Shown here piece after piece: positions 5,149 through 63,956 of a stretch of DNA of 64,000 nt. Every line of letters starts with the position of its first letter. Positions within the stretch are counted from its first letter, which is position 1. The stretch is taken from positions 27,156,001-27,220,000 of the forward strand of contig OZ024742.1 of the NCBI GenBank assembly GCA_964016885.1, read 5' to 3'. Origin of the DNA: Eledone cirrhosa. Lineage: Eukaryota. A model generated the notes under the pieces. The model saw nothing but the letters and a program-made list of their open reading frames with translations, searched no databases and was not told where the DNA came from. A program made the translations under genes and the position numbers.

Positions 5149-5198
<50 letters not shown>

Positions 5199-5487
5199 CA
5201 AATAACAAAACGAAATTAAATTTCGTTTCGTTTGTAACTCACTTTTGTATGACTGACGCTTAAACAATTAAGTTAAAGATGTACATCCATATATGTATAC
5301 TGAAATACTAGTATGTATATGAATACACACACGTATACATATGTAGATGTACCAAGTTTTTTCACTGGTCACTTTACTGTGAGTGACCAGCTATTCTGTA
5401 TGTAAACACACAGACAAACCGGTTTTTAGAGTCATACTGGTTTTTGAGGAAACACCTTTCCTCCATTCTCCAGAAAGCCAGACAAGG

Positions 5488-5532
5488 AATATTGAACTAG
5501 TTTCGTTGTTGTTACAACTCATCAGCAATATT
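5488..5532 (-). ncRNA. Type I minimal hammerhead ribozyme (left-arm copy)
   Basis: Exact reverse complement of 5945-5989. Confidence 0.9.
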
Positions 5533-5944
5533 TACCTATCTTCCGGCCCCTCTAGAGAATCGTAAAAGCACTTATCGTTATATGCTTTTTCTATGAAAAT
5601 TAGTAGTGGGCAGACCAATTTGCATAGAGTGTGAGTAAGTACCGGTTCAACGGAGACGATAAAAACAAATAACAAAACGAAATTAAATTTCGTTTCGTTT
5701 GTAACTCACTTTTGTATGACTGACGCTTAAACAATTAAGTTAAAGATGTACATCCATACAAGATGTACATCCATACAAACGAAACGAAATTTAATTTCGT
5801 TTTGTTATTTGTTTTTATCGTCTCCGTTGAACCGGTACTTACTCACACTCTATGCAAATTGGTCTGCCCACTACTAATTTTCATAGAAAAAGCATATAAC
5901 GATAAGTGCTTTTACGATTCTCTAGAGGGGCCGGAAGATAGGTA

Positions 5945-5989
5945 AATATTGCTGATGAGTTGTAACAACAACGAAACTAGTTCAATATT
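5945..5989 (+). ncRNA. Type I minimal hammerhead ribozyme
   Basis: aatattg-CTGATGA-gttgt aaca acaac-GAAA-ctag-TT-caatatt. 7-bp stem I, 5-bp stem II, palindromic stem III ACTAGT, GUU cleavage triplet. Confidence 0.92.
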
Positions 5990-6237
5990 CCTTGTCTGGC
6001 TTTCTGGAGAATGGAGGAAAGGTGTTTCCTCAAAAACCAGTATGACTCTAAAAACCGGTTTGTCTGTGTGTTTACATACAGAATAGCTGGTCACTCACAG
6101 TAAAGTGACCAGTGAAAAAACTTGGTACATCTACATATGTATACGTGTGTGTATTCATATACATACTAGTATTTCAGTATACATATATGGATGTACATCT
6201 TTAACTTAATTGTTTATATATATATATATATATATAT

Positions 6238-6386
6238 AAGAAAGATGGTGTGATAAGATACCAGGTGGACCATAATGCACCAGAGTACTCAATGCTAAGG
6301 GTAGTTGGGTGGGTAATAAGAAAAGGTCCGGCCGGATCTAGCTGTCGAAACGGCCGGAGCTCAGCCGTCGGGTTCCTGACTCTTTT

Positions 6387-6389
<3 letters not shown>
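6238..6389. mobile_element. Tiny inverted insertion of the same family as 11679-12184
   Basis: 6238-6326 is the reverse-complement homologue of ~12100-12184. 6340-6389 carries GAAA-cggc...gccg-TC-ggg (3' half of the hammerhead). Flanked by TA tracts. Confidence 0.75.
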
Positions 6390-6429
<40 letters not shown>

Positions 6430-7321
6430 GTATAGAAATTATTGTGAGCAAGAAGCCAACAGTATGTCATAATATATAACTGACTATAACGTCAAAATGG
6501 AAAATAATTAACGTAAGATATGGGAAAATAATTCAAACTCAATTCAAAAAAAATCAAGACAGAGATTTTATCCCCAGATTTTGTGAAATCCAGGGAAAAA
6601 CCAATAGAGTCTTAACTCAGAATCAAATAAAGTTTAAATACCCATCCTTCAATTTGGAAAAACTACAAATGCTACATATAGTCTTAAAAACTTCTCAGTT
6701 GGGACGGTCACGGTTGGAATCGTTCATCAGTAGAGCTCAACCACTTATATATATATATATAAGTGGTTACACAACAGTTAGTTCACTATACCGAGAGCAA
6801 TTGTTTCACCTTAGCGGATCCTCAGCTTGTAATGGACTTGGTTATACGTAACGGGAAAGCCATCACTAAGTCCAAGCCGTACGAAAGGGGCAATCCGTCG
6901 TGTGGATGAACGAATAAATATTCTAAGGAATAGCAATTTCCTAAATTCAAATAATGAATTCTTCACACGTTGTCCACACGTATGGAAACACCTCTTACAT
7001 AACTACAAATCTCCGGATTGAATTACAACAACATCCTAATTTCTTACCAACTAGAAACTTTCGGACTTTCGCAGTTATCTCCCTTACACCTCTCGCACGC
7101 AATTTAGTATTGCCTGGGTGAAGTGACCGTTTCTGCGCATGCGCGTTTGTACGGTTATCCTTTCCGTTCCGTTTAACCATGCCCATTACGAGGTGAGGAT
7201 CCACTAAGGTGAAACAATTGTTCTTGGTATGGTGAACTAACTGTTGTGTAACCACTTCTACCTAATTCGTCCCATGGACTGAGTGCTCTACCATTACGGA
7301 TATTACCTTCCAGTGTTCTAC

Positions 7322-9034: not shown

Positions 9035-9448
9035 GTGAGGTGCGAGAGGACTGGGGGAGAATGCAGGGGGAGAAGAAGAGAGACAGATAGGTAAAAGAAG
9101 AGGAAGCAGGATGTCGTGTGAAAACCAGTCATTAATTTAAACATCTTCATTCTTCAAGGCTATTTCTCTGAATAGCAGCCAAATTTTCCTCTATCCATTA
9201 ACTAGCCCCATTGTATTGTTGCTGACTTTTATTAGGATGATAAATCATTTCACAGCCAATACTCAATGAGATTGAACAGTTTCACATCGCTTCTTCTTCA
9301 CTTTGAACTTTCTTATCTTCAAAATATTGCAAGGCAGCACACATGGTTCTTCTCTTAGACAACAAGTAGATATAATAAGGCAAAGTTATTTTATATGAGT
9401 CAACTCATATTATCATTACTATCATTATATATATTATTGTTACCATTA

Positions 9449-10125
9449 AAGGCGGTGGACTGGTAGTAATCGTTGAACGTTGGACAACATGCTTTGCAGT
9501 ATGAGGTCGATTTAAATAAAGTACCAGTAATATACTAGGGTCGATTTAATTGACACCCCTCTCCTAAAATTGTTGGCCTTGTACCTAATTCAGTGGCAAT
9601 TCTTTTTATTTCTAATCAATATTTTATGTAGATTTATTATCATTAAGGGCGGAGGATTGGAAGTTAATGGCGGTGGTTGGGCGTTGGACAACATGCTTTG
9701 CGGTATAGAGGTACAGTAATTTACTTCGGAGTTCAATCCCCAGCAAGGTTGCCATTGTCTTTCATCCTTACGGGATCGACAGTAATGTGCTGCGTTTGAT
9801 TTAATCGACTTTCCCCTCTCCCAAAATTGCTGGCCTTGCGCCTATAGTAGAAATCATAATTATTTAACAATTATTTATGGTCTGATTTCAAATCCCGCCG
9901 CAGTTAACTTTGCCTTTCATCCTTACGGGGTCGATACAATAAAGTACCAGTAATTGACTGGGATAATTGGTGGCCTTGTGCCAATAGTAGAAACAATTAT
10001 TATTTAACAATTATTATTATCATTAAAGGTGGGTCATTGGCAGTAATGGTTGAACGCAGTGGGGTCCACTTAATCGACTTCCTTACACAGAATATAGTTG
10101 GCCTAGATCAGAAACCATTATTATA
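9449..10125 (+). mobile_element. Cluster of about four partial Meta-type tRNA SINEs
   Basis: Repeated ggcggtgg..tggc A-box heads, gcctttcatccttacggggtcgat core and gtgcc...agaaa-catt tails. Confidence 0.75.
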
Positions 10126-10261
10126 TTTATCAAGAAAGCTGTGGGCCGGTAGAATCATTTCACCTTCTATACTCACATGTAATGCGTTGCCTTTCAGTTA
10201 GACTCTCTTCATATATGATTATCTATCTCACACACACACGCATATATATATATATATATAT

Positions 10262-10671
10262 ATGGAGGAAGTTATAGTTCACTTGAAGCATTGTGTTATG
10301 AGGTATAAACGTTTGTATTTGTAAAGCCAAAACAATGCAGCTATGGACATAGAATATGAATGCAAATGCAAAAGATATTGTTGACAATTAGTCTTTTACC
10401 TTAAATTTATTTAAATATCCTTAATTTTCGATATAATATCTCTTCTTCGGAGGGAAGTAAAGCGGTTAAACCAGTGTTCTAAATGACCTGGCAAGCTATT
10501 TAGAACACTGGTTTAACCGCTTTACTTCCCTCCGAAGAAGAGATATTATCTCGAAAATTAAGGATATTTAAATAAATTTAAGGTAAAAGACTAATTGTCA
10601 ACAATATCTTTTGCATTTGCATTTATATTCTATGTCCATAGCTGCATTGTTTTGGATTTACAAATACAAAC

Positions 10672-10679
<8 letters not shown>
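10262..10679. mobile_element. Foldback hammerhead element in (TA)n
   Basis: Arms ~10303-10484 and 10498-10679 are near-perfect inverted repeats with a 13-bp spacer; ~40-bp extension on the left arm only. Confidence 0.9.
10526..10566 (+). ncRNA. Minimal hammerhead, C4 variant (CCGAAGA); mirror copy ~10416-10456 (-)
   Basis: cct-CCGAAGA-a gagat att atctc-GAAA-at-TA-agg. Palindromic AATT stem III, 3-bp stem I. Confidence 0.65.
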
Positions 10680-10752
<73 letters not shown>

Positions 10753-10777
10753 TAGATAGATATATAGATATATATAT

Positions 10778-10847
<70 letters not shown>

Positions 10848-10849
10848 AT

Positions 10850-11264
10850 ATACACGGGTGTGTATGATTGTGTATAGAAGATAATATTAATAAGAGGAAT
10901 TCCAACTTTGTCTGATTTACTCGTTTTATTTACAATCCTTTAAAATTTATAATGGTATTATAATGAAATAGTATGATAGAATATTAAATTCTAAGTGTTA
11001 ATTGAACAAGTACTTTCATGCTTTCGCAATCTTCAGGTTCATAATATGTGGTGACACTCAAGTTTGCAATTTTCCACAGTTGAAAATTGCAAACTTGACT
11101 GTCACCACATATTATGAACCTGAAGATTGCAAAAGCATGAAAGTATTTGTTCAATTAACACTTAGAATTTAATATTCTATCATACTATTTCATTATAATA
11201 CCATTATAAATTTTAAAGGATTGTAAATAAAACGAGTAAATCAGGAAAGTTGGAATTCCTCTAA

Positions 11265-11270
<6 letters not shown>
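10850..11270. mobile_element. Foldback hammerhead element between (GATA)n/(TA)n tracts
   Basis: Arms ~10884-11074 and 11082-11270 are inverted, with the 7-bp spacer cacagtt. Confidence 0.9.
11003..11041 (-). ncRNA. Type I minimal hammerhead ribozyme; mirror copy 11115-11153 (+)
   Basis: tgaac-CTGAAGA-ttgc gaaa gcat-GAAA-gtac-TT-gttca. GAAA tetraloop on stem II, palindromic AGTACT stem III, 5-bp stem I. Confidence 0.85.
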
Positions 11271-11313
<43 letters not shown>

Positions 11314-11316
<3 letters not shown>

Positions 11317-11620
11317 AGGTAATTCCAAAGGAATAGCAAAGGAAAAAAGGGTGCTCTATGTATAGAACAGAACTATTTAATTAGAAAGTGAACAACACAA
11401 AATATAACTACTCCATTACCAAAGGTTTGTGGATCACAGACGATAATGATATATGTCGGGATCATTCGTCAGACAGAGGTGTTATAAAATCAGACATTAT
11501 CAGATGCTATAACATCTCTGTCTGACGACTGATCCAGACGTATATTGTTATCTTCTGTGATCCTGAAAGCTTTGGTAATGGAGTGGTTATATTTTGTGTT
11601 GTTCACTCTCTAATTAAATA
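11314..11620. mobile_element. Older foldback hammerhead element in (TA)n
   Basis: Arms 11374-11491 and 11503-11620 are inverted with many mismatches. Right arm has CTGACGA (11522-11528), a gatc/cag-closed stem II and GAAA-gc-TT (palindrome AAGCTT); stem I is poor. Confidence 0.8.
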
Positions 11621-11678
11621 TATATATATTCGAAAGAAAGTAATATTGTTTTTCAAATGTATATAAATATATATATAT

Positions 11679-12183
11679 AGGAAAAAGTATAACCCCGACG
11701 GCAGAGCTCAAGCCGTTTCGACCGCTATTTCTGGACTAAATTAGAATTTTTAGTCTGGTGAATAAATAACCGAACTTGTTAAGGGGGTACTTCCTTATAT
11801 GGGAAGATTGTAGTTGTCAAGAGGATTAGTTCACAAATAAGTCTATCATGGCATTTGGTGGGAGGTAGGGGTGGCTGAACTTGCCTGTAGAACAATAGGG
11901 GGGTGAGTGGAGCGGTCAAGCGTTGAAAGTGATATGTATACAACACATTTTAACCAATCCTCTTGACAACTACAATCTTCCCATATAAGGAAGTACCCCC
12001 TTGACAAGTTCGGCTATTTATTCACCAGGCTAAAAATTCTAATTTACTCCAGAAATAGCCGTCGAAACGGCTTGAGCTCTGCCGTCGGGGTGATACTTTT
12101 TCCTATTTCCCACTCTACTACCCTAAGTATTGAGTACTCTGGTGAGTTATGGTCCATCTGGTTCCTTACCACAATTCCTTTGT

Positions 12184-12184
<1 letters not shown>
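11679..12184. mobile_element. Foldback hammerhead element in (TA)n
   Basis: Arms ~11679-11831 and ~11953-12105 are inverted around a ~120-bp spacer; the right arm extends ~80 bp further. Confidence 0.88.
11995..12091 (+). ncRNA. Type I hammerhead, U3-A8 variant with long stem II and a stable stem III
   Basis: cccc-TTGACAA-gtt cggctattt (loop) aaatagccg tc-GAAA-cggc ttgagctct gccg-TC-gggg; GUC triplet. Confidence 0.75.
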
Positions 12185-12230
<46 letters not shown>

Positions 12231-13437
12231 GAGTGAAGTGTATGTAACTAGCGTCTTATCCAGGGGTGAGAGTCAGAGACTAATTTACGGCGTCCAAAAG
12301 TAAATGAAGATACTACCTACCATGATCCTTTTGATTAAAAAAAGTAACAAAAAAGAAAGAACCAAAAAATCAAAGAAAGAACAGCGTATATGTATTAAGA
12401 AAGATGTATTTTTTTATAGTTTCTTCTATTAAGACCGAACCTATTCTACTCAAGTACTATTGTTGACCTCGGTGTATAAACAACTATAGAACTAACGGTA
12501 CATAATTATTGTCATATTGTACATTTCCGTACTCCTCTTCAGTATTTCCATTGTTGCAACTCTCAAGCCATATCTCAATATTTATATTACAATCCATATC
12601 ACAATAAATTTATTCTTTCTCTCTTTTATCCTATTACATTTCCATTCTTATTTCATTCTTATCCTATTCTATTCTATTATAGTCTATTATATTCTATTCT
12701 TGGAAACATTCAAACGTACCAATGCTCCTTCATCATATTTTACAATTCCAATTAACTAAACCATTCGCTGTTCTATGATTTCTTCTTCTTCGCAATTACA
12801 TGAAGGGTAATAATTTCTTCACAGGAGAACGTTATTTAGTATTACAGAGACACCAAGTCTCCAAAAGTATACTCTAAACCCGCACCACCTTTGACAATCT
12901 GGATATCCGATTTCAGTGAAAGGGAGAAAGCATGAGAGGCGATAGCGTTCGTAACTCCATTCTGTGCAGGATTGACTGTATATGGGACCTTAATAAACAC
13001 GGAAGAAGAGAAGAATTGTTTCTACTTTGGGCATAAAGTCAGTTATTTCAGTGGAATGGGAAGCCGATTAAATCGACCTTAGTGCGTTAGTGGTACTTTA
13101 TTTTATCGACACCATAATGATGAAAGGCAATGCTAACGTTGACGGGATTGGAACGCAGAACGTAAAGGGCCCTAACTATATGCCCAGAGTCAATAAAATA
13201 AAGCACTGGAATCGATTTAATCAACTTTCTTCTCCCCCAAATTGATTGACCTTGGGCCGAAATAGAATCCATTATACAGTACTTGGAATCTAATTAGCTG
13301 ATGGTAATATTATCATTAATATATTTCAACACAAAACACTAAACGAGGTTTAACATGACTTTTATGACACGACATTTATAATTTTGTCAGATACACCCTT
13401 ATTTCATTAATACTTATCGTTAATGCACGTAAGCACC

Positions 13438-19660: not shown

Positions 19661-19876
19661 TTCTCTGTTTACAAGTTGTTAATATAGATTTTATTGGTGC
19701 TACTATCTACACTGCCTCAGTGTGAGTGTGTGCCCTTAAAACATATACACCAAGTCCAGACACGAATGTAGCAAACTCTTCCTGTCACTGCTTCTTTTTC
19801 CTTCAAAAGAAACACTGAGAAATAGGATCGATTGAAGGGACGGGTGGGTTGAAATTGTAATATATATATATATATA

Positions 19877-20772
19877 CGAGGTGTGTCAGAAAAGTTCCAG
19901 GACTGATGTCACAAAAGATGTATTTCAAACCCAAACTTCACACTAACAGTTTCCTCCTTCAAAGTAATCCCCCTGGAGTCTAATGCACTTTTCCATCCTT
20001 TTCTGCACGCTTGCATGCACTCCTGGAAGGATTCTTCCGGAATCCTCCGCAGTTCTTTCGTCGCGGCCTTTTTTATGTCGTCCACGTCTTCAAAACGGGT
20101 CCCCTCCGGGTCGTACTCGAAGATCCATGACTCATCATCGGTGATGACTGTCCCTAGCCAGTCTGGTTCGATTTCAAGATGCTTGAGGATGTCCTGGCAC
20201 ACTTGCATGTGTCGACCCTTCTGGTCATCGTTCAGCAGTTTTGGCACCATCTTCGCGCAGACTTTCCGCATGTCCAAATCTTCAGTGAGAATCTTCCAGA
20301 CGCTGTCCCGATTCATGCCCAGCTCATTTGCCATCAGTCGTACAGTCAGCCGACGATCGCTACGCACCATCTGCCTGACGCGCTCAACGTTAACCTCAGT
20401 CCTGGTTGTTGAGGGCCTTCCGCTCCTGGGGTCATCTTCCACGTCCTCGCGTCCTTCTTTAAACCTCTTGCACCACTCAAAAACACGTGATGGTGACATC
20501 GTCTCATCTCGATACACTTGCTGCAGCAATCTCAGTGCTTCTGACCGAGTTTTCCCCAACCGTTCGTTGTTCTGTGCTCATTGCTTGACGACCAGAAACA
20601 GAGGACATGTATATAAAATTATGAAGAAAAAGGTTTAATCGCTGCAGAGAGCTAAGATTACAGTTACATACTCCAGGAGTAATACATTGAAGGAGAAAAC
20701 TCTTAGTGTGAAGTTTGGGTTTGAAATAAATTTTTTGTGACATCAGTCCTGGAACTTTTCTGACACACCTCT
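19877..20772 (-). mobile_element. Mariner (Tc1/mariner) element, internally deleted, with long TIRs
   Basis: TA-flanked TIRs starting cgaggtgtgtcagaaaagttccaggactga, inverted at 20703-20772 and imperfectly to ~105 bp; inserted at a TA tract. Confidence 0.95.
19909..20559 (-). pseudogene. Mariner transposase remnant
   Basis: HTH region VFEWCKRFKEGREDVEDDPRSGRP, MRKVCAKMVPKLL, ITDDESWIFEYDPE, then a jump to GTRFEDVDDIK; the middle of the DD34D domain is missing. Confidence 0.92.
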
Positions 20773-21984
20773 TATATATAAGGCTAACCTGAACGGTTCA
20801 TCGACTCACCAATATACTCTCATGAAATGACCAAATGAGGTTTATTTTTCATCATAGTCCCTGGAATAAAAATATACAATTATTAGCTAGAAAAGTTGAA
20901 ATTAATGCATGTAGAATTTCACAGCTGTATCGTCATTTCTTCATAGTCAGCCTACGAAGTTTTCAACTGACGTTAGTAAATACCGGCCACTATTAACCCC
21001 AACGTGACGCTACGTGTGATAATAATTGTTTCTACTGTTGGCACAAGGTCAGCAATTATCCAAGTGCATTACTGGTCCTTTATTTTACCGACTCCGTAAG
21101 GATGAAAGGCAAAGTTAAACTCGCCGGGATTTGAACTCAGACCCTAAAGGGACATAACTATGCTAGAAAGCATGGCGGTCGTCCCTCAACCGGTACTGCC
21201 AATTCTTTGATAATAATACCTTTCCATACCACGATTCATTTATGAAGAATGTCAAATTGCTTTGAGTGGGAATAGAACCTAAATAGCCAGAGGAGTACGT
21301 TGCATCTTTGCCAGTAACGTTAGAAAACGGTCAAAGTGTTGAGTCTTTAACAATACAGTTTCACCCCACCCACCATTTTCTTTTTATCAAAACATAAAAC
21401 AAATCCATTCAATGACAGCAAAGTCAAATGGGATGAAATGAAACAGTGAGTTTAAGACGTATTTAACGGATTAAGCCAAGTTAACAGATAGAAAAATAAA
21501 AAATTATTATTTTAAAACTGTTTAATAAAAAAAAAAAGCAAGGAGTGTTTAACGAAATCAATAAATTAGTGCAGAGGGAGCGACGAATTTTAAAATCCCT
21601 CCGGGGAAAGATTTAGCGAGATTTTATATCATTATGGATAGAGTTTTGTTGTCTAAAAAATAGGGAGCGGGAAACTGAGCACGTGTACCGGATTAATGGG
21701 TCTCTCTGACATTCATTAATTGAGGTATTTCACGTTAAATATTTACAACAGGATTATTAGTATTAAAAACAAAATAATAATGATAATAATAATAATTTCT
21801 GTGATCAACATGAGGCACATGTTTGATGAAGGAGTGTAGTTGATTATATCGATCGTCTGTACGTGACAGTTCTATTAAGTCATCGATCCTAGAATGACAA
21901 AAGGTAAAGTAAACAGAGTTAGGATTTGAACTTGGAATATAAAAAAAAAAAAAGTCGTAAAATAACTGACCTAATAATGATTTA

Positions 21985-25199: not shown

Positions 25200-25650
25200 T
25201 AATTGTTTCTACTTTTGGCACAAGGCCAGCAATTTCCCAGTAACTTACTGGGACATACAAAATGATTGTTTCTACTGTTGGCACAAGGCCAGCAATAAAC
25301 CAGTGTGTTACTGGTACTTTATTTTATCGACCACGTAAGGATGAAAGGCAAAGTTATAATGCTTTCTGATTTAGGCTCAAGGCCGATAATTTTAGGGGAG
25401 GCATTATTGGTGCTGAGTTTGGCAGTATCGGTAGAGCGTCAGACACCATGCTTTGCAGCATAGAATTATAGCCCTTTACGTTCTGAGTTCAAATCGGCCG
25501 AGGTTAACTTTGCCTTTCATCCTTAAGGTGTCGATAAAATAAAGTACCAGCAATGTACTGGCCTTGTGCCAAAAGTTGAAACTTTATTTTATCGACCCCG
25601 GATGAAAGGCAAAGCTAACCTCGACGTATTTGAACTCAGAACGTAAATGT
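25200..25650. mobile_element. Jumbled Meta-type SINE fragments in both orientations
   Basis: Multiple ggcacaaggccagcaat tails and a plus-strand copy at ~25420-25585. Confidence 0.7.
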
Positions 25651-26757
25651 CGACCAGATTTCAGTCCTCTGATATTGCAAATACGTTCTGGCATGTGTAG
25701 ATCGATTCCTTAAATACATACTAAAAACTATCGTTATATTTGAGGGATTTGAACTCAGAACGCCAATGACTGTAATTATATATCACAAAGCATGTTGTGC
25801 GAAGCTCTACCAATACTGCCAATCCACCACAATAATAACAAACATCAAATAGAAACAGTTTCGTAGATGGATAGGGAGAGGGAGACTTTTAGGGTAATCA
25901 TAGGCAGACCCCTCTCCCCATAAAACCCTTGAATATTCTGTCACATTACAGGCTTTAAAGGGACCATTTCTCAGTTGTTTTCTTCTGCATAGAAAAGAAA
26001 AGTTAGAGTAGACCAATTTAGCTACTTCAATCTCGCCGCTCTCACTCATCTTTCAAAAGACCCACTAGAGGGGAGGTGTCTACGACAGTATGTTTTCCCC
26101 CGACCACCACTAACAACAAATCTGATAGTAATAGTAGTAGGAGGAGGAGGAGTAGTAGTAACTGTAGTAGTTTAGTAGTAGTTGTAGTAGTAGCAATAGT
26201 GATAGTAGCCGTAGTAGTTGTAGTAGTAGGAGTAGTAGTAGGAGTTTTAGTGTTAAACTAGATTATCAAATTAAGTATTTTAAATTAATTTCTGGGATTG
26301 TTTATCAGCTGGACACTCCTGTTGTTTATTAATCCCAACTTTTAATGTTTATGAAAATAAGATCAGCTAGATTATGACTGTATGTATGATCCCGTAACTC
26401 CTGATAAAGTGGTAGGGGCGCCGTATTGACATACGGCATTATTGGGCATTTTTAAGCTTGGCGGAGCCCATCCCTCGCTGGGACTGAATACAGCAGGTTT
26501 ATACGTAAGGAGAGAAAGTACTAGACCCAGTACTAGAGTGGTACTCTTTTTCTAATCAACCTGGAAAGGATGAAAGGCAAAGGTAACCTCGGTGGTATTT
26601 TAACTTAGAAGGCAACGAACCAGAACGAATAACAAAGCATTCTATCCGACGTTCTAAGCATTCTGATAATTTACAGATCTTGTGTATATGAACAGTTGTT
26701 AACATTACTATTAAGACGAACTAATAGAACTGTGAAAGATAAAACACCAATCTAATA

Positions 26758-43610: not shown

Positions 43611-44704
43611 GCTCTTTGAGTTTCAGTCATTGATGTTAGTTAACTGGAAAGTTTGTTGAAATGAATATCAAGCCACTACCTGCAGCCTCAGATATTCAGG
43701 ACGTATCGGAGGGTTCTTGCTGTTTCCAGCAAGCATGCCTTTTGAAGTGTTCCAAAAAGCGGGGCGTGACCAATTTTCTTTAAACATCCTTGTAAACTCT
43801 TTGAGATAGTACCTAGTGCGCCTATGACAATCGGGTCCACTTTGACCTCATGACAGTTACAAATCCTTTTACCTCCCACTTTAAGTGCTGATATCGGTTA
43901 AGTTTCTCCCTCTCCTTCTCTTGCACTCTCGTGTCGAATGGGCAGGCTAGATACACAAACAGGCACGATATTTGTTCCTTGTCCAAAGCACCATGTCAGG
44001 TCTATTGTGTTCCAGTTTCTTGTCCGTCTGCATCCTAAAATCCCACAGCACCTTCATCTGATCCTTTTCCATCACCGACTCTGGCTTATGCTCATACCAC
44101 TTCTCAGAATGTGGTAAATTGTTTACTTTGCATAGGTGCCAGTGGATCACCCTGCCCATCACATCATGTCTCCAGCCCTTATAGTGAGTCTGGGCTAGGT
44201 GTTTACACTCGGATACAATGTGAGCCACAGTCTCCTCTCTCTCTCCACAGATCCTACATAGTGGGCTAGCCTCCTCCTTGTAAATATGGTGTTTCAGCCA
44301 CTTCGTTTTGATGGCCTGCTCTTGCGAAGCCATTAGCATTCCTTCTGTAGCCTTTTTAAGGTCTCCTCTTTTCAACCAGTTCCATGTCTGTGGATCTCTA
44401 AATTCAGTTTTCTCAAAGAAGGCACTATGAATGGACTTTTCATGAAGGCTGCTCTTTCTCCTTGTGTTATTTCCTCCTTGGACATCCCTTGGTCTATTGT
44501 CCTCTTCTTCAGTACAATTCTGAGCATTGGCTCCCTACTATCAGTCACGTATTTGTGTAGGTTGTTTTTCTCCATCTGAACACAGTCCTCTATGCTGATA
44601 AGACCTCTTCCACCATCAGATCTCCTTAAGTAGAGTCTATCGACATCACTCCTTTTGTGGAACATGTTGTAGATAGTCAATAGCTTCCTAGTCTTCCTAT
44701 CCAT
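43611..44704 (-). mobile_element. R4/Dong-clade non-LTR retrotransposon, family A, 5'-truncated
   Basis: MDRKTRKLL...DVDRLYL.R..GGRGL, CRICGEREETVAHIVSEC (CCHC), RHD, NRPD, PIVIGALG (RLE); flanked by (ATT)n. Confidence 0.92.
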
Positions 44705-44721
44705 TATTATTATTATTATTA

Positions 44722-45565
44722 CAGCTGCATTTATCTTGCTTTATGTTCATACGAGTTATCACCAAGTCACAACCAGTGACCTCAAGAGACAACAAGGTCC
44801 GCCATGTTCAAGAAAGAACATACATACTCACACATGCATCTTTAGTGTTTAGACTTGTGATGTACTTATATTGACATAATCTTCCTTTGTATATGGGCAG
44901 TTCCCATTAGTACTATCTTTTGTATTTCTCCTATACGCGGGTTTCCTGGGATGTGCGATAAGTAATCATTAGACCTCTTAGGTATCATTCCCAGAGCGCC
45001 TACAACCACTGGTATTGTTTTAGTTCTCAATTTCCACATTTTTCCAATTTCTATCTCCAGGTCCTTATACTTGCTCAATTTTTCAAATGTTTTTATAGAT
45101 ATATTCTTGTCTATTGGAACAGACATATCAATTAGCAGGCATACCCTCTTTTTAAAGTCCTTCAATATTATATCAGGTCTATTTGCATCTATTTTTCGGT
45201 CTGTTTGGATGCTAAAGTTCCACAAGATTGAGATGTGATCTTTTTCAAGTATGGGAGGTGGTTGATGCTCCCACCAATTCTTTTGATGGGGCAGGTCAAA
45301 ATGCTTACACATTATCCAATGTATGTATTGTGCAGCTCTGTCATGCCTGTGTAGGTATTCGGTTGGAGCTATAGGACTGCACATTGAAATTATATGGTCA
45401 ATGTCTCTGGTTGTTTTTTGCATACACGGCATAATGGGCTGCATCCATTTTTTATTATGTTGGCTTGGTAATTTTTTGTTGGCAGACACTGATCTTGTGC
45501 TGATATAATCAGTCCTTCAGTCTCCGATTTCAGTCCAGAGGACGCCAACCACTGATGGGTTAAAG
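44722..45565 (-). mobile_element. R4/Dong-clade element, family B copy 1
   Basis: LKSETEGLIISAQDQ, CRVC, RHD, NRPDII, LIDMSVP, KLSKYKDL; between (ATT)n tracts. Confidence 0.92.
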
Positions 45566-45591
45566 TTGTTATTATTATTATTATTATTATT

Positions 45592-46393
45592 TGCATTTAT
45601 CTTGCTTTATGTTTATACGAGTTATCACCAAGTCACAACCAGTGACCTCAAGAGACAACAAGGTCCGCCATGTTCAAGAAAGAACACACATATTCACACA
45701 TGCATCCTTAGTGTTTAGACTTGTGATGTACTTATATTGACAGGATCTTCCTTAGTATATGGGCAGTTCCCATTAGTACTATCTTTTGTATTTCTCCTAT
45801 ACGCGGGTTTCCTGGGATTTGCGATAAGTAGTCGTTAGACCCCTTAGGTATCATTCCCAGAGCGCCTACAACCACTGGTATTGTTTTAGTTCTCAATTTC
45901 CACATTTTTCCAATTTCTATCTCCAGGTCCTTATACTTGCTCAATTTTTCAAATGTTTTTATAGATACATTCTTGTCTATTGGAACAGACATATCAATTA
46001 GCAGGCATACCCTCCTTTGAAAGTCCTTCAATATTATATCAGGTCTATTTGCATCTATTTTTCGGTCTGTTTGGATGCTAAAGTTCCACAAGATTGAGAT
46101 GTGATCTTTTTCAAGTATGGGAGGTGGTTGATGCTCCCACCAATTCTTTTGATGGGGCAGGTCAAAATGCTTACACATTATCCAATGTATGTATTGTGCA
46201 GCTCTGTCATGCCTGTTTAGGTATTCGGTTGGAGCTATAGGACTGCACATTGAAATTATATGGTCAATGGTCTCTGGTTGTTTTTTGCATACACGGCATA
46301 GTGGGCTGCACCCATTTTTTATTATGTTGGCTTGGTAATTTTTTGTTGGCAGACACTGATCTTGTGCTGATATAATCAGTCCTTCAGTCTCCG

Positions 46394-46396
<3 letters not shown>
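45592..46396 (-). mobile_element. R4/Dong-clade element, family B copy 2
   Basis: Near-identical to copy 1 but truncated slightly further; between (ATT)n tracts. Confidence 0.92.
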
Positions 46397-46448
<52 letters not shown>

Positions 46449-47995
46449 GTTTTAATTTTCTTTCATTATTGTTTCTGAGATATATGCCGTGTGTCTTCCT
46501 GACACCTAGGGCAAATAAATTCACAGTGTGCATTGGTAAGCCAGTTAATACAGCACATTGATTATAATTTTTAAAAAAAGAAAGCAGTATACATATATAA
46601 ACATATGGATATGCATATGTAAATACAAGGAGGGATATCAATCTTACAGAGATAGTGCTCTTCTCAATACGTGTGCAGTACCAGCGAAAACAATTTTCTG
46701 CACCTCGTGCAGAGAGGGTAAACCAAGGAATCATTCGCAAATATTGTTCTCTTCCTTTCTTGATCATTCCCAGGCCTGCCATAATCACTGGTATTGTAAC
46801 GGCCTTGAGGTGCCACATTTTCTCAATTTCAATAAGCAGATCTTTATATTTTCGTAGCTTGTCAAATTCTTTTGCCGCAATATTATGATCATATGGGATG
46901 CTCATATCTATCAATAAACAGACCTTGTTATGTTGATCTTTTACAATGATGTCAGGTCTATTTGCTTTTATGGTCCTGTCAGTATGTACAGGAAAGTCCC
47001 AGAGAATTGTTACTTTTTCTCCTACAGTTACAGTCTCAGGGTGATGATTTTACCACTTGTCTTCAGCTTTGATTTTGTAATGCCGACATATTACCCTGTG
47101 TAGATATTGGCCAACTCTGTCATGTCTATATTTGTATTCTAGTGGTGCTAAAACTTTACATCCAGAGACTAAGTGTCACAGAATTACCAACCAGAGACTT
47201 TTGTCACAGAATTACCAATCATTATTTGTTTTCTATTGTGGATTGTATTTGGGAGTTTTTGAATTGGTTCTCTATCATTTATACTAGAATGTCTTACTAT
47301 TGCAAGCTCATTCAGTATTTTTTGCTTTAATTCCTTTATATTCTCCCTGTGTTCTCCCTATGTTTGGTTTTTGCAATTACTGTTTCTAAGTCCTTCTCCT
47401 GCTAATTTCAGCGGGTTCAATAGGGCTTCTCATTTCTACAAACCTATTTGTGATTTGGTAAGATGGAGGTCTTTCAGTAAAGATTTGTGACTGGTTACTA
47501 TCTCCAGGAGATTCTTCAGTTCTTTCATCATTTATATTTATGTCATTCTCCACAGTCTGCTTGATCGCAGTTAGTTCAGTGTCTGTGAGTCTATTATTTC
47601 TGAAGATATACCTCCTTACATTTGCCAACTTATTTCCATCCATATCACGTCTGCTAACTTGATTCCGATTTTTCCAGATTTTGTAGGAATTTAAAGTGTG
47701 TCTGTCTTGTGATGGCTTACCTAATGCATAGTAATATGCATATATTACTTCTTTATACTCCTCTCGAGTCCATTTCATCCTTTTATGTTTTTCTTTTTGA
47801 GGTGGTTTGGGTGGTGGATCTGGAGGGCTCGAGTTAGGGCAATCCCCGATCAAGTGACCATCCAGGTCCATAATTGGAGAAGAGTTTGTGCCAGAGGAGG
47901 ACTTTTCGATCTCAGGTTGGCACCTTCCTGAGGGACGCGCTTCCTGATTAACCACAGGAAAAGCGATTTCGTATTGTGTATTAATCTTTATTTGT
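46449..47995 (-). mobile_element. R4/Dong-clade element, family C, large internal deletion
   Basis: N-terminal Myb-like region KRMKWTREEYKEVIYAYY...NNRLTDTEL (47386-47955) joined near 47170-47220 to the RLE end (RHD, RPD, IDMSIPYD, KLRKYKDL); RT absent. Confidence 0.85.
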
Positions 47996-48765
47996 TCATC
48001 TCGTAGTACATGCTTGCGTTATGCATGGTATTGGACGTACATGGAAAGTTGCCTGGCTCTTTGGGTAGTGCATTTGCTGGCTGGCACTGAGATCATTATT
48101 ACTATTATACCAGTATAGTTATGGTCATTGTTGTTGTTGATTGAGGTGATATTGTTATGGTTGCAGCTGTAAGAGGTGTACGAGAATTTTCTCAACTGTT
48201 CTTGTGGTGTGAGTGGTGTTGGTGGTGGTGGTGGCAGGGAGATTAATGCTGGGGGTGGGGGTGCTGGGAGTGGCAGTGGGTAAGTTGACATTGTAGCTTA
48301 TAGGAGTTGCTTCTCCGATGTTATTGTCTGTCTATTTTGAGTTTGAGATGTAAATGGGGTACTAGTATTCTTTTTTCCCTTTGTTTTGTCCTTTATGTGG
48401 GCTCCATACACATACATAAATATACATTCACACGTGCATACTTATGCACACGTATGTATATACACACACATATATATATACCCACACATTAGACACTGAA
48501 AAGGGAGGTAGGTAGCAGTCAGTGATAGTAGTCTAAAAATAGATTGGGGATTTACTGGTGTGAATGTGTGAGGAAGTGGTTGTGAATGTGGTGGTGGGAG
48601 AGAGAAGTGATCTTTCAACTGTCCATTTTCCTTTCACAATCTGAAATTTAGCCACAATCGACCAAAATATAAAACAAGAAAATTGTGTTGGGGAAATATT
48701 AAAAAATATATATGCACCTTTCACATCTTCAGCTAGGGAGATGATTGCATAATAATTAGTCGGAT

Positions 48766-49111
48766 TGTAGTGACCTACATTCCGAGGGCTCATGGATACA
48801 TTCTCCGTACGTTGTTTGGCTCAGTTCAGCCAATCGCTACCAGCGTAGGAGCATGTATCTCGACTTCCGCCCAGAGGGAAAATCTCTCTTGCTGCTTTGG
48901 ACTCTGAAAGGTCAACACGCAAGTATGTAACGTTGAGATTTTCCCTTTGGCCTGTCGGCCTCTTTTGGCCCGACAGCGCTTTTCCTTTCTTTCTTAAAAT
49001 TCTTTATTTTGTTTGTTCTTTTCTTTGACTTGTCAACCCACTTAACTTGCGCGGTCGGTTGTAAATAAAGCTTGTAAACTATCATAAAGTCTCATAATAT
49101 TATGTTCTACA
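48766..49111 (+). mobile_element. Solo-LTR-like element with structured interior
   Basis: TGTAG...CTACA termini, AATAAA at 49064-49069 and three hairpins at 48795-48976; no clear target duplication. Confidence 0.45.
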
Positions 49112-49355
49112 AAGCCTACAATGAACTACAACTACTCCAACAAACATTCACTTTACGGCTAACTTTGCCTCTCCCTCGCTTAACGTTATATTTCTCACTA
49201 TAACAAATAACAACAATAACATATATTCTTTCTTATTAATATTATACCATGTAGGCATAATATTATTTTTCTGCTAAAGGATTTTTGATTAAACAGAACT
49301 TATCCCCCGAAATAAACTGTGTTTTCCGATCTATGTCTGTCTCTTTTCTTCAAAT

Positions 49356-49548
49356 AATTGTTTCTATTTTAGGCACAAAGCCAGCAAATTACCCAGTAGA
49401 TTACTGGTACTTTATTTTATATCGACCCAGGAAGGATGAAAGGCAAAGTTAACCTCGGCGGGATTTGAACTGAGATCATAAAGGGACGTAACTCTATGCT
49501 TCAAAGAATGGTGCCCGACGCTCTACCGATAGTGCCAATCCACCGCCC
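49356..49548 (-). mobile_element. Meta-type tRNA SINE
   Basis: Well-preserved copy ending ccaatccaccgcc (the SINE 5' end on the minus strand). Confidence 0.85.
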
Positions 49549-50179
49549 ATTTCTTCAAATAATAATATGTAAACAGCGATTGTAATGGGAAAATATATAA
49601 AAAATATTTATGCAGTTCTCACAACTAGTGTCAGATTATTTGTAGAGATAAGTGGTGAAATAATTTGTTGAATTTTCGTGTTAGGGAATACCAAATTAGA
49701 CAAAATTTACTCCTCGAAATAAGCAACGTGCGTCGTCCGATCTATGACTGTTTCTCTTCTTCAAATAGTGTTTTCTTTAAGTTCAAAGAATTAACGTCTG
49801 TATATCTGCATGTTTCTTTTGTGTACATTTTTCGTTGTGTTTATAATACATATTTGTGTAATATAATCAATAGAGTTTGTTACTTACATATATCGTTTTT
49901 CTTTTTCTTATGATTTAAAATTCTGAGTAGTGGTGCGGCTGATATTCAGTTTCTTTTTTACTCATGTGGTCCGTTATTTTAATGAAGGAAATTATTTTAT
50001 AAGGACGATCCGTGTACAAAATTTATTTTTTGAAGGCTTCTTTGGTATTCGTCCATTATGTTTCCACTTCGTTTTCTTAGTGTTTTATTATTGGTTTGTC
50101 GATGGTGTTCGATTTATTTCAAATCTTGTGGGGAGCTTAGTTATGGGCGTCCATGATGTTATTCAGTCCCTTATTATTA

Positions 50180-50556
50180 TGGATTGGCAGTATCGGTAGA
50201 GGGTTGGATGCCATGCTTTGACGCATAGAGTTATGGCCCTTTGCAATCAGAGTTCAAATCTCGCCGAGGTTAACTTTGACTTTCATCCTTGCGGGGTCGA
50301 TAAAATAAAGTACCAGTAATGCACTGGGTAATTTGCTGGCCTTGTGCCAAAAGTAGAAACAATTATTATGATTATAAGGGCTGTGGATTGGCAGTATTTG
50401 TAGAGGGTCGGACGCCATGCTTTCCAGCATAGTTACGTCCCTTTACGCCTGAGTTCAAATCCCGCCGAGGTTGCCTTTGCCTTTCATCCTTACGAGGTCG
50501 ATAAAATAAAGTACCAGTAATGCACTGCGTAATTGCTGGCCTTGTGCCTAACAATT
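50180..50556 (+). mobile_element. Two tandem Meta-type SINEs
   Basis: ggattggcagtat...gagttcaaatc...ctttcatcctt...gtcgataaaataaagtaccag, each with an ATT tail. Confidence 0.85.
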
Positions 50557-50567
50557 ATTATTATTAT

Positions 50568-52585
50568 TGGTCTTTGAGTCTCAGTCATTGATGTTAGTTA
50601 ACTGGAAAGTTTTTTGAAATGAATATCAAGCTACTATCTGCAGCCTCAGATATTCAGGACGTATCGGAGGGTTCTTGCTGTTCCCAGCAAGCATGCCTTC
50701 TGAAATGTTCCAAAAAAGCGGGGTGAGGCCAATTTTTTTTAAACATCCCTGGAAACTTTTTGAGATAGGACCTAGTGCGCCTATGACAATCGGGACCACT
50801 TTGACTTCATGTCAGTTCCAAATCCTTTTTACCTCCCACTTTAAGTCTGGTATCGGTTAATTTTCTCCCTCTCCTTCCCTTGCACTCTCGTGTCGAATGG
50901 GCAGGCCACATCCACAATCAGGCACGATATTTTTTCCTTGTCCAAAACCACCAGGTCAGGTCTATTGTGTTCCAGTTCCTTGTCCGTCTGTATCCTAAAA
51001 TCCACAGCAACTTCACCTGATCGTTTTCCATCACCGACTCTGGCTAATGCTCATACCACTTCTCAGAATGTGGTAAATTGTTTACTTTGCTTAGGTGCCA
51101 GTGGATCACCCTGCCCATCACATCATGACTCCAGCCTTTATAGTGAGTCTGGGCTAGGTGTTTACACTCGGATACATTGTGAGCCACAGTCTCCTCTCTC
51201 TCCACAGATCCTACACAGTAGGCTATCCTCCTCCTTGTAAATATGGTGTTTCAGCCACTTCGTTTTGATGGCCTGCTCTTGCGCAGCCATTAGTATTCCT
51301 TCTGTAGCCTTTTTAAGGTCTCCTCTTTTCAACCAGTTCCATGTCTGTGGATCTCTGAATTCCGTTTTCTCAAAGAAGGTACTATGAAGGGATTTTTCAT
51401 GAAGGTTGCTCTTTCTCCTCGTTGTAATTTCCTCCTTGGACATCGCCTAGTCTATTGTCCTCTCCTTCAGTACAGTTCTGTGAATCGGCTCCTTACTATC
51501 GGTCACGTATTTGTGTAGGTTGTTTTTCTCCACCTGAACACAGTCCTCTATGCTGATAAGACCTCTTCCACCTTCAGATCTCCTTAAGTAGAGTCTATCG
51601 ACATCACTCCTCTTGTGGAACATGTTCTAGATAGTCAATAATTTCCTAGTCTTCCTATCCATTTCTTTTTGTTCAGCAACATTCCATCTCAGAATTCCCG
51701 CACTGTACCTAATAATAGACACAGCTCGGGAATTTACTGCACTTATGACATTTCTACTGTTCAGATGTGATTTTAATACGCTCCTTACTCTCCGAATATA
51801 TTCAGATCTTATCAATTCCTTCATTTTTTTGTTCTTGATGTCATTAGCCTCCAGAATACCCATTCTTCAGTGTCAATTTCCTTTATCATCTCACCTGTTG
51901 TTACCTGGATTCCGTTGCTTCTGCTCAATTAACCCTCTTCATCACAAGGACTCCACACTTACTAATACCAAATTGCATACATATATCATTGTTGAAAATA
52001 CGGACAGTGTCAACAAGCACATCCAACTCCTTTTCACTCTTCCTGAAGAGCTTAAGATCGTCCATGAAGAGGAGGTGATTGATGGTAAGCTCTACCTTTC
52101 CCAACTTGTATCATGCTCTCACTTTTCGCAGTATAATGGTCAGGGGCATGAGGGCAAGGAAAAACAACAGAGGGGACAGACTATCTCCCTGGAAGATACC
52201 TCTCTTGATCTTCACGCCTCCGAAGGATTCTCCAGCTGATATTAACTCTGTTTTCCAGGACTTCATACTTTTGCCCAACAACTGTCTGATTGTATCTGCC
52301 ACCTTGAAGATCTCTAGGCTTTTGGTGATCCAAGAATGAGGCACCATGTCAAATGCCTTTTTGTAGTCTATCCATCCTATGGCAAGACCAGTGTGTCTCC
52401 TCTTGCAATTCCTCATTACCATCTTATCAATAAGTAACTGGTCCTTTGTACCACGGGACTTCTTTCGGCATCCTTTCTGTTCGTCCGGTAACAAGCTGTT
52501 TGTGTGGAGGTGATGGTAGATTTCCTCAGACATAATGCTTGTCAACAGTTTCCACATTACGGACAGACATGTGATAGGTCTATAG
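50568..52585 (-). mobile_element. R4/Dong-clade family A, longer copy with RT
   Basis: [60 protein letters not shown], then the same CCHC/RLE end as 43611-44704. Frameshifted; sits in the (ATT)n tail of a SINE. Confidence 0.93.
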
Positions 52586-52639
52586 TTGTTATTATTATTA
52601 TTATCATTATTATTATTATTATTATCATTATTATTGAGC

Positions 52640-54413
52640 ACGGAGAATTGTCAGTATAGGTAGAGCGTCGGACAATATGCTTTGCAGCATAGAGTTACGA
52701 CTCTTTACGTTCTGTGTTCAAGGTTAGTGTTGCCGTTCATCCTTACGGTGACGAGAAAATAAAGTAACAGTAATGCACTGGCGTTGATTTAATCGACTTT
52801 CTCCTCACCAAACGTTGCTGGCCTTGTGCCTAAATCAGAAACCATTATCATTGTTGTTGATGTTGTTCTTCTTAACGTCATTAATAGTTTTATCAACTTG
52901 TCCACAAATATTTCGAGTTTTCCTTGCATTATCATACACGGATTGGCAGTATCGGTAGAGGGTCTGACGCTATGCTTTGCAGCAAAGAGTTACGGCCCTT
53001 TATGATCTGAGTTAAAATCCTGCCGAGGTTAACTTTGCCTTTCATCCTTACGGGGTCGATAAAATAAAGTACCAGTAATACACTGGGGTAATTGCTGGCA
53101 TTGTGCCAAATGTAGAAACAATTATCATACACATACGTTTTGCTGAAATACGTAGAGCCATTTCAAGTTAAAAACTGTAGAATCATCAACACCTGCTTTG
53201 CCCTTGTGTGGTTATTATGTTGCTATTTTCGTATGCTAAATTGGTGTTTTATCTGGTTGTTGTGTTGGATGCATGTAACATTATTTATGTTATTTGCTTT
53301 CGTATGTGTAAAGTATGAGCTGGAAAGGCAGTGAATTGGCAGATTTCTTAGAACATCAGATAGAATATTTTGCGGTATTTGTTTCGGCTCTCCACTATCT
53401 GAGTTCTAATTACACCAAGGACAACTTTGCCTTTCAAACATTAGAGGCCGATAAAAAAAGTACCTGTCTTGTACTGGTGTCGATTCTTCTGCTATATCTC
53501 TCTCTTTCTTCCATTCTATCATTCTCTATTTTTCTCTTGAAAAAATCTGTTGTAATCAGACCTGGAGAGGGATGGGCTCCACAAGTACTCTAGAAACGGC
53601 ATATGTCAATATGGCACCCCTATGTCTCTTTCAAGGTTTACGAGACCATGGAAAGTGATACTCCATAGTGATGGACAATTTCGTAGAGTTGTTAGAGCGT
53701 TCGATATGTGTTTCATGTCTCTGTGTTCTGAGTTAAAATCTCGCAGAGTTTCTTTCGAGGGGACGATAACAAATGTACCAATCCAGTGCTGTTGCAGGCC
53801 TCTCTTCTTCCAACTGTCAAATACTGAGTGTTTCGATCACCCGAATGTCGAGAAGATGTCTGTGTCTGTTCGCGGTTGCATGGACATCTAAAACTCTAAG
53901 TGAATGTATAGTACATACTACCAAGTCATACTCGATTGCAAGTGATGGCTGTAGCAATTCTATATGTCCTAGATTATATAGCAGTACAGGTAGAGGTTTG
54001 GACAACATGCTTTGCGGCATATCGTTACATCTTTTTACGTTCTGAGTTCAAATATCACCTGGGTTAACTTTGCCTTTCATCCTTATGGGGTCGATAAAAT
54101 AAAGAAAGAATAACGCACTAAGATGAATTTAATCGACATTTCCCTCCCCAAACAATGTTAGCAATGTGCCTAAAGTAGGAACCAGTATAGGCGGTGGATT
54201 GGCAGTATCGGTAGAGCAATGGACATCATGCTGCTTTGAGGCATATAGTTACGTCTCTTTACGTTCTGAGTTTAAATTCCGCCTAGGTTTGCTTTGCCTT
54301 TCATCCCTACGGGGTCGATAAGTCAAATTACTAGTAACGGACTAAGGTCGATTTAATCGACATTACCCTCCCCTCAAAACTGTTGTCCTCAAGCCTAAAT
54401 AAGGAATCATTAT
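52640..54413 (+). mobile_element. Cluster of Meta-type SINEs (~52640, 52938, 53980, 54190); another copy at 56092-56305
   Basis: Same family motifs as above. Confidence 0.8.
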
Positions 54414-59681: not shown

Positions 59682-59826
59682 GTATATATATATATATATA
59701 ATGGATTAAATATATATATATATATATAATAGGATTAAATTATCCTATTCGACCACACCTAACCTCGCATCACACCTAGCACGCACGAACATTAGGAAAA
59801 CTAGGGAAGGATTCGAAGCAATTAAA

Positions 59827-62637: not shown

Positions 62638-62686
<49 letters not shown>

Positions 62687-62692
<6 letters not shown>

Positions 62693-63766: not shown

Positions 63767-63768
<2 letters not shown>
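62687..63768 (+). mobile_element. Penelope-type pLTR element with inverted 5' segment in (TA)n
   Basis: 62687-62770 is the reverse complement of 63587-63670; ~100-bp 3' extension; TA tracts on both sides. Confidence 0.8.
63566..63620 (+). ncRNA. Type I minimal hammerhead ribozyme, same family as 1932-1987
   Basis: actgc-CTGAAGA-gg tc acagcca aaga tggctgt ca ct-GAAA-tatata-TA-gcagt. Confidence 0.88.
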
Positions 63769-63794
<26 letters not shown>

Positions 63795-63801
<7 letters not shown>

Positions 63802-63956
63802 ATGCTTTGGGAGGTTGATGTTGCCAATAAGAAACACACGCAAAAGTTGCTTTCACTCCAATTTATCATAAATTTAATTTATAAAAAATTGGAGTGAAAG
63901 CAACTAGTGCGTGTGTTTCTTATTGGCAACATCAACCTCCCAAAGCATAACAATAT
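63795..63956. repeat. Inverted repeat next to (TA)n, running toward the window end
   Basis: Arms ~63795-63866 and ~63887-63956 are near-perfect reverse complements. Confidence 0.85.

Follow-up and report, generated by a model that had tools for sequence, protein, structure and literature searches.

Four foldbacks in TA tracts of the Eledone cirrhosa genome

Positions 10262 to 12184 of the window, i.e., the whole stretch of 64,000 nucleotides that was analyzed, hold four palindromic insertions, P1 to P4, each composed of two mirrored arms with an unpaired tail on a single arm. The 3' ends of the arms face outward in all four. The number of palindromes, the longer arm in each, and the outward polarity agree with an earlier sequence-only reading of this DNA. 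P1 (10304 to 10678) follows a (TA)n target tract at 10243 to 10263; neither this nor the other (TA)n tracts of the locus has an assigned strand. Its tail (10264 to 10303, minus strand) belongs to the long arm only (10304 to 10484, minus strand), which corresponds to the pLTR of a Penelope-like element (PLE) with an ORF for reverse transcriptase (RT) and GIY-YIG (L181 and L193), and the 3' ends of this family pile up at 0 and -43. The short arm (10485 to 10678, plus strand) exceeds the long arm by 15 nt on the 5' side. Hammerhead-like cores are predicted at about 10450 to 10415 in the long arm (minus strand, with U4C) and from 10532 in the short arm (plus strand).

The gap between P1 and P2 is filled by (TA)n (10676 to 10750) and by a (TATC)n/TA tract (10751 to 10845, minus strand), an expanded template sequence of the P2 long end. 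P2 (10884 to 11271) has its tail at 10846 to 10883 (minus strand), its long arm at 10884 to 11073 (minus strand; pLTR of a putatively Neptune-like PLE with a 775-aa ORF, L183), and its short arm at 11074 to 11271 (plus strand). The minimal hammerhead core predicted in the long arm (about 11036 to 11000, minus strand) is intact, that of the short arm is damaged (G12A) at 11120 to 11156, and the recurrent center (11066 to 11090) is a near-perfect palindrome plus one extra G. Beyond (TA)n at 11268 to 11313 lies P3 (11374 to 11620), with its tail at 11314 to 11373 (minus strand), a long arm (11374 to 11486, minus strand; pLTR of a putatively Hydra-like PLE, L185) with a damaged core (G12C), a center of ~20 nt without a match to the family reference (11487 to 11506), and a short arm (11507 to 11620, plus strand) with intact core letters and a mismatch in helix III. 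The gap between P3 and P4 (11621 to 11676) consists of a short TA run, a ~40-nt nonrepeat spacer (11630 to 11668), and another short TA run. The short arm of P4 (11677 to 12106 overall) lies at 11677 to 11950 (minus strand) and the long arm at 11935 to 12106 (plus strand; pLTR of a second putatively Hydra-like PLE, L182 and L190). Because the short arm reaches ~120 nt further 5', the apparent spacer at 11832 to 11950 is antisense UTR of the element. The long arm has only the GAAA/helix III/GUC half of a hammerhead, and its tail (12107 to 12184, plus strand) adjoins the last (TA)n tract (12184 to 12229).

The arms differ at 3/181 positions in P1, 6/193 in P2, 15/121 in P3, and 7/155 in P4, the range from few mismatches to many that had been noticed at first sight. 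By these values the ages of P1 to P4 would differ, with P3 the oldest if arms are identical at birth. RNAs of either strand are predicted to fold with -157 to -302 kcal/mol. The separators had been described as almost only TA or GATA tracts. TA tracts were found, but the ~40-nt spacer between P3 and P4 is no repeat, and the GATA tract (about 10751 to 10845) is part of the P2 end. This tract may reflect slippage at initiation, since the sequence that follows in the P2 template (L184) is made up of TATC units and a subsequent (TA)5, and the ends of other P2 copies are of the same kind; P3 long ends likewise gain (CA)n. The four palindromes are unrelated at the DNA level, as had been stated, but not at the protein level, where their parents are detectably similar (P3 and P4, 32% identity over 101 aa; P1 and P2, 22% over 664 columns).

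An assembly artifact was rejected as the main explanation, since the arms are 2 to 12% different and duplications flank whole units elsewhere. A 131-nt short-read contig, possibly from the same sample and spanning only part of the locus, crosses the P3 center without a difference. No host gene was recognized in the 64-kb window among 30 ORFs of at least 150 aa judged by eye, a search that short exons could escape. The locus is a dense but ordinary example for the E. cirrhosa genome, and the foldback architecture has already been published.

Parent elements and altered hammerhead motifs

The four palindromes are almost certainly real and derived from PLEs. First-look searches of the species' own 3.0-Gb genome returned 1986 (P1), 156 (P2), 1236 (P3), and 3139 (P4) candidate relatives, and ORF-bearing parents were found for all four, bearing out the Penelope origin that had been proposed. 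Judged by sequence, each palindrome is a head-to-head pLTR pair of a different PLE. The arms are 94 to 98% identical to UTRs of RT-endonuclease ORFs, and the distance from the end of the parent ORF to the arm match downstream is ~340 nt for P1 and P2 and ~640 nt for P4. P2 also occurs as a direct pLTR-ORF-pLTR copy (L184, which holds the N-terminal part of the ORF), and the inverted pLTR arrangement is found in L181, L182, L185, and L193, with variable 5' ends indicative of 5' truncation.

In Pfam, the P1 parent (L193, 624 aa) matches RVT_1 (1.8e-11) and GIY-YIG (1.2e-5), and the P2 parent (L183, 775 aa) matches RVT_1 (1.6e-6) and GIY-YIG (3.4e-6). No relevant Pfam match was obtained for the parent proteins of P3 (L185) and P4 (L182 and L190). 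RT and endonuclease (EN) motifs are present in them by inspection, and the P3 protein has Atlas neighbors at 0.95 to 0.97, one cluster having GIY-YIG in 37%. The P1 parent has a reduced Cys linker before EN (the Nematis/Neptune criterion is a Zn-finger-like linker), and it may be a Nematis element. In the P2 parent, the Neptune CX2-5CxxC linker and CCHH, GxKF, and DKG are all visible. DKT and RWR were seen in P4-linked ORFs only (Hydra criteria, DKT and RWK), and both P3 and P4 parents have the Hydra-type CxCX5C linker, CxxC, and CxH, motifs that (the latter two near the C terminus, and with CCHH absent) define Hydra (PMC8557442). These motifs suggest that P2 is Neptune-like and that P3 and P4 are Hydra-like. 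An ORF piece with a CxCX5C linker and a GIY-YIG-like motif, adjoining a TA tract at 59710 to 60399 of the window, looks like a further Hydra-like PLE. In L185 (813 to 1300), the P3 long arm runs on into microsatellite-rich sequence that differs from the UTR of the ORF-bearing short arm; this sequence is common to L186 to L189 and perhaps represents a second subfamily or two templates in a single event.

A hammerhead core had been seen in every arm. This held only in part, as a full unaltered core with its helices occurs only in the P2 long arm (triplet CUU). The P1 core reads CCGAAGA, with U4C in 55/55 family arms, and GAAA is changed to AAAA in the P2 short arm and to CAAA in the P3 long arm; the P3 short arm keeps the core letters, with helix III broken. 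P4 lacks the CUGANGA box, none was found within 900 nt upstream, and its family reads CAGAAAU (82/85, 78/89, and 90/90 at the three changed positions). Rfam gave no hammerhead match in 10262 to 12184 at an E value of ≤10 and, among the 150 of 196 matches listed for the window, only HH9 at 5472 and 5934 with sub-gathering scores. Criteria for minimal hammerheads of metazoan PLEs are available, and the dual motifs of these elements lie on opposite strands, 100 to 700 bp apart (PMC4209133). P1 and P2 fit this minimal type I layout in opposite-strand pairs, P1 as a minimal hammerhead and P2 as a smaller one with no real helix II. Departures from it are the family-wide U4C of P1, the noncanonical closing pair (10.1-11.1) of the long helix II in the P3 family core, whose base is weak, and the decayed first box of P4. 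The predicted motifs are thus mostly altered, and to speak of four ribozymes overstates them. In a hairpin made by read-through, pairing of the arms would mask any motif. The 5' ends of copies do not pile up at the hammerhead cleavage sites, and the hammerheads are likely passengers. In the P4 family (12058 to 12087 in the window), the GAAA strand can fold into a rival 5-bp hairpin instead of helix III because a 6-mer is repeated, and the letters of this hairpin are well conserved despite the loss of the first core box.

Two fixed 3' ends and one tail per foldback

The 3' ends of the copies form two sharp modes in each of the four families, 38 to 78 nt apart, so that an arm is either long (with the tail) or short (without it). 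Tail-free core queries were used so that tails were not selected for. They gave 120 loci, of which 10 were dropped (6 duplicates and 4 without a usable seed arm), leaving 110 seeds; the similarity searches took the best 40 candidates each and favor young copies. Of these seeds, 48 formed direct foldbacks; for the other 62, no direct partner lay within 1.5 kb. The 48 comprised 40 long+short pairs, 1 short+short pair, no long+long pair, and 7 pairs with an eroded end. Where both ends were intact, 40/41 were long+short, or 36/37 after removal of the window's own four (P = 4e-11); one probable local duplicate (L209/L210) is included in the seeds. The same pairing was found in three junction-selected sets, in 24/24 typed loci of the first (27 fetched, 3 eroded), 16/16 of the second (30 fetched, 14 eroded or truncated), and 10/10 of the third.

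Sixty evenly spaced 10-kb stretches (600 kb) contained 35 arms in 10 foldback loci, of which 9 were long+short, 1 was complex, and none was tail-to-tail; extrapolation from this sample puts the P4 group at roughly 50,000 genome-wide. With all loci pooled, 100 pairs were head-to-head, 83 of them long+short and 13 eroded, the exceptions to the rule being 2 long+long and 2 short+short. Only 3 pairs were tail-to-tail, all of them TA-spaced, and the nonrandom polarity that had been put forward as a check was therefore observed. Within 10 kb, outward pairs were counted by hand as 26 versus 0 among the first 100 matches of a genome search, and a family-blind scan of 51 inverted repeats found 10 with outward cores, 2 with inward cores, and 39 with none.

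Priming had been placed at the RNA's 3' end, which the data do not support: there are two fixed internal positions, and the template continues past the long end into the ORF (L184 and L046). Copies that continue in tandem beyond the long end were seen in P2 and P4, with none in P1 or P3. Apparent piles of 5' ends at -240 (P1) and -170 (P3) are close to the limits of the queries.

Further foldbacks occur in the window. The same polarity had been assigned to positions 5192, 6238, and 62687, and the cores do lie on outward strands at 5261 to 6216 and 62686 to 63671; near 6238 (6249 to 6391) the polarity is also as stated, but the unit is hardly a palindrome, a tail-only arm being joined to a core arm. 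The fifth and larger foldback (5195 to 6237) has arms of 96.7% identity with HH9-like cores on outward strands and, near its center (about 5663 to 5778), a second copy of the end region, a partial tandem inside an inverted unit. The unit after a short TA run at 6238 to 6391 is P4 related, and its tail-only antisense arm and core sense arm have almost no overlap, much as in twin priming. An outward pair with a hammerhead-like core at 6825 (minus strand) lies at 6758 to 7260, flanked by TA.

One template and two primers

Do both arms derive from one RNA? Distances between the arms of a foldback are smaller than those between random pairs (P1, 0.028 versus 0.038; P2, 0.029 versus 0.054; P3, 0.062 versus 0.068; P4, 0.038 versus 0.060), rare alleles are common to both arms 6 to 22 times more often than in random pairs, and both arms mirror subfamily sites. 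The two arms thus carry the same haplotype; these are finished insertions, in which conversion between arms could also make them alike or add to their likeness, and inversion between arms could randomize the center.

Identical arms and palindromic centers are likewise explained by self-priming, the published reading of head-to-head PLE repeats, in which a single hairpin intermediate (snap-back cDNA or antisense RNA, the latter proposed in PMC3846280) makes the palindrome and the endonuclease cuts back one end, so that only one tail remains. We regard this as unlikely. The further 5' reach belongs to the short arm in 15/40 foldbacks, P1 and P4 of the window among them, to the long arm in 13/40, and to neither in 12/40, and a single cDNA from the long end cannot give a short arm that reaches further 5'. 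Nor does self-priming fit L200 and L201, whose arms barely overlap and whose long arm does not get beyond the short site; the arms of 3 rows of the 600-kb sample barely overlap in the same way.

Duplications of 13, 14, and 15 bp, read by eye, surround the whole unit at three readable sites (L011, L105, and L201), and a strict duplication filter kept 1/104 loci (3/5000 shuffles). The short sites match (TA)n for 3 to 4 nt in all four families, and at the P2 long site the template contains (TA)5 behind the TATC units.

The best mechanism, and a probable one, is two-ended priming in which a single RNA offers two fixed internal sites as starts. This use of both target ends as primers, already part of the sequence-only reading, is supported by one tail per foldback, the same alleles in both arms, and either arm reaching further 5'. 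Both nicked target strands would prime reverse transcription on the same element RNA in one event, one end at the tail site and the other at the no-tail site, and the two cDNAs would then likely join at their 3' ends. Staggered nicks may leave 3' overhangs that pair with 3 to 11 nt of UA-rich template, and a protein dimer may act on one RNA.

A recurrent center below a TATA box in P2

The exact P2 center of the window (G variant) was found at 27 loci (control, 0). With ≤1 mismatch allowed, the parent P2 center gave 1432 hits; as an exact locus counts about twice, these stand for roughly 700 loci, and a P4-related subfamily has its own fixed center at 351 loci. A genome search with an AT-rich P2 core query found nothing, and a neighboring stretch gave matches. 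At the fixed P2 stop, 4590 arms match just inside the boundary and 1413 across it. A TATA box lies at -30/-31 of the center in 46/49 linear copies, both arms stop 31 nt below it, and the TATA-defined start, seen in P2 only, is putative. Directly behind the run-off end, the center-T strand carries the variant base in 39 cases (27 G, 11 C, and 1 A) and the other strand in 3 (P = 6e-9; one doubly changed locus left out), and this bias of 39 versus 3 argues against later mutation, which would be symmetric. Reverse transcriptases are known to copy a cap. Both P2 cDNAs may run off at a 5' end set by the promoter, pick up one base without a template, and pair with each other over a near-palindrome of 5 nt.

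These data bear on self-priming from both sides. One arm is only 7 to 22 nt long in 8/30 P2 loci (6 on the extended side), which suggests some snap-back or brief hairpin self-priming, and snap-back may start some of the joins. The strand with the extra base, in contrast, starts in the short arm in 12/24 and 9/16 P2 loci, and there the tail must be copied from a second cDNA, because a short cDNA cannot supply it. A center placed 31 nt below a TATA box of the sense strand also speaks against this route.

The high copy number of one center raises a second alternative, that palindromic masters are transcribed and re-copied as units, a self-renewing nonautonomous element concerning mainly P2 and the P4-related subfamily. 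It would account for one center at roughly 700 loci, another at 351, and the G variant at 27; both orientations would be expected. Five 431-nt P2 foldbacks (L069 to L072 and L075) carry the same diagnostic alleles in unrelated flanks and also fit this reading. We consider it improbable, since the G-variant centers span at least 6 haplotypes that are also found in linear copies reaching upstream of the center, some of them ORF linked, no arm-specific difference recurs in >2 loci of the G-variant P2 set, and promoter run-off gives a fixed center without any master. The five copies also mark P2 as an element active very recently. In the center of L237, a P4-family short arm is joined directly to an inverted stub of 20 nt and the long arm of P2, either a chimera of two families or the outcome of a deletion between units of a stack.

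Palindromes are unstable, and some arms have deletions (P4 short arm), as would suit single insertions made palindromic later by host repair, conversion, or replication slippage. This is very unlikely, as the youngest copies (0 mismatches in 185 to 187 nt) are already full foldbacks with both center orientations, duplications flank the whole unit, and the short end is a fixed position. MITE or Foldback-type DNA transposons with a TA target, to which fixed outer ends, TA flanks, and the fixed P2 center might point, are hardly credible given asymmetric ends, variable 5' truncation, 13- to 15-bp duplications rather than symmetric TIRs with a short fixed TSD, and arms that match the UTRs of RT-endonuclease parents. 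Fixed ends and spacers, which the sequence-only reading would have taken as a mark of MITE-like transposons, do exist in P2 and the P4-related subfamily, yet these are not MITEs.

Returning to two-ended priming, we are inclined toward a "twin-start" form of TPRT. A single RNP would place each of the target's two 3' overhangs at a different fixed start site within the same RNA, yielding exactly one tail per complete insertion. In the upstream pLTR, both cDNAs would run off the capped 5' end and fuse, with promoter-less hammerhead foldbacks as the main in vivo product, some of which may be re-copied as palindromic units.

Relation to known systems

An inverted, 5'-truncated copy with the tail at one end and a TA bias has been described for EN+ PLEs, the mechanism being left open (PMC8557442). 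Head-to-head palindromes with 8- to 10-bp TSDs in a rotifer and TATA/Inr in a pLTR were reported together with the self-priming model (PMC3846280). The elements described here resemble these in the head-to-head 5'-truncated copy, single tail, (TA)n, and flanking duplication; they differ in being mostly ORF-less pLTR-only units in tens of thousands, with tails of 38 to 78 nt versus the published 30 to 40 and duplications of 13 to 15 bp versus 8 to 10 bp. The pairing rule is counted here, whereas the mechanisms published for EN+ PLEs are self-priming or EN resolution.

For PAc (Poseidon of Anolis), TPRT in vitro involves cleavage and extension of both strands, with two internal start sites on either side of the tail; cleavage by the hammerhead is dispensable, and a dimer is predicted (PMC11167929). 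Both-strand priming at two internal sites bracketing the tail is the likeness to our foldbacks. The accessible text of that study does not address one event using both sites or a tie to inverted copies. It reports that the start site has no homology to the target and does not differ between the strands; here, by comparison, TA matches of 3 to 4 nt are present at all four short sites. The origin of PLE inverted repeats and of the one-sided tail is described as open in PMC8557442 and PMC11167929. Searches of the open literature, including the accessible text of PMC9977147, PMC8969392, and PMC13282606, brought up no study with counts of long+short pairs or a proposal of twin starts on one RNA.

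Non-LTR retrozymes are short hammerhead-bearing nonautonomous pLTR derivatives in head-to-tail tandems (10.64898/2026.07.22.740005). They share with the foldbacks the short hammerhead pLTR derivation, but the latter are single inverted pairs. An identity of P1 to P4 with non-LTR retrozymes was rejected, as the window contains no tandem array of these units and the pairs are inverted.

LINE-1 twin priming is similar in that the other target strand also starts internally on the same RNA, from which an inversion results. The arms of L1 inversions lack overlap and their second site varies, whereas the site is fixed here and the arms usually overlap.

Countable rules (one tail, one template, either strand crossing the join, and a TATA-defined stop) separate the models, and the counts make an open mechanistic question testable in an existing in vitro system. 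Tens of thousands of such units could be mislabeled as MITEs or miRNA hairpins; Rfam miRNA matches in 10262 to 12184 are only subthreshold. If transcribed, the foldbacks would be a large source of dsRNA and, as first suggested, might be substrates for ADAR or siRNA pathways.

TA targeting, stacking, and other repeats of the window

TA targeting and repeated insertion over time, as first proposed, are supported, but evidence for a special hotspot beyond TA targeting is weak. The 600-kb sample contains 1072 TA runs of at least 6 units and 17 TA-flanked foldbacks. Another foldback lies within ~500 nt at 8/55 P2 loci versus 1.56 expected (P = 2e-4), and none of 17 random TA-flanked foldbacks has a neighboring foldback. 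Another P1 to P4 arm occurs within 150 nt of 6/114 seed ends (5.3%), 69/2144 TA-run edges (3.2%), and 0.6% of random positions. The enrichment of stacking is thus modest, and the excess relative to TA-run edges is small. Stacks of two families recur (L003), and a run of four is an extreme case of shared targeting and not a new structure. Each insertion would duplicate TA and thereby renew the target, from which stacks may grow.

A second stack lies at the end of the window, where an outward pair with 85-nt identical ends and a core at 63571 (62686 to 63768) is followed by a 163-nt palindrome across the next TA tract (63794 to 63956). Other repeats in the window include a 12-bp minisatellite of 78 copies (751 to 1692) and a transposon remnant with inverted ends of ~110 nt (19869 to 20780), by its motifs presumably Tc1/mariner-like. 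A partly tandem cluster with RT and restriction-like endonuclease motifs (43947 to 52650) we take to be LINE fragments. Dispersed SINE-like fragments, some in inverted pairs, lie at 9430 to 10090, 13080 to 13260, and 25270 to 25840.
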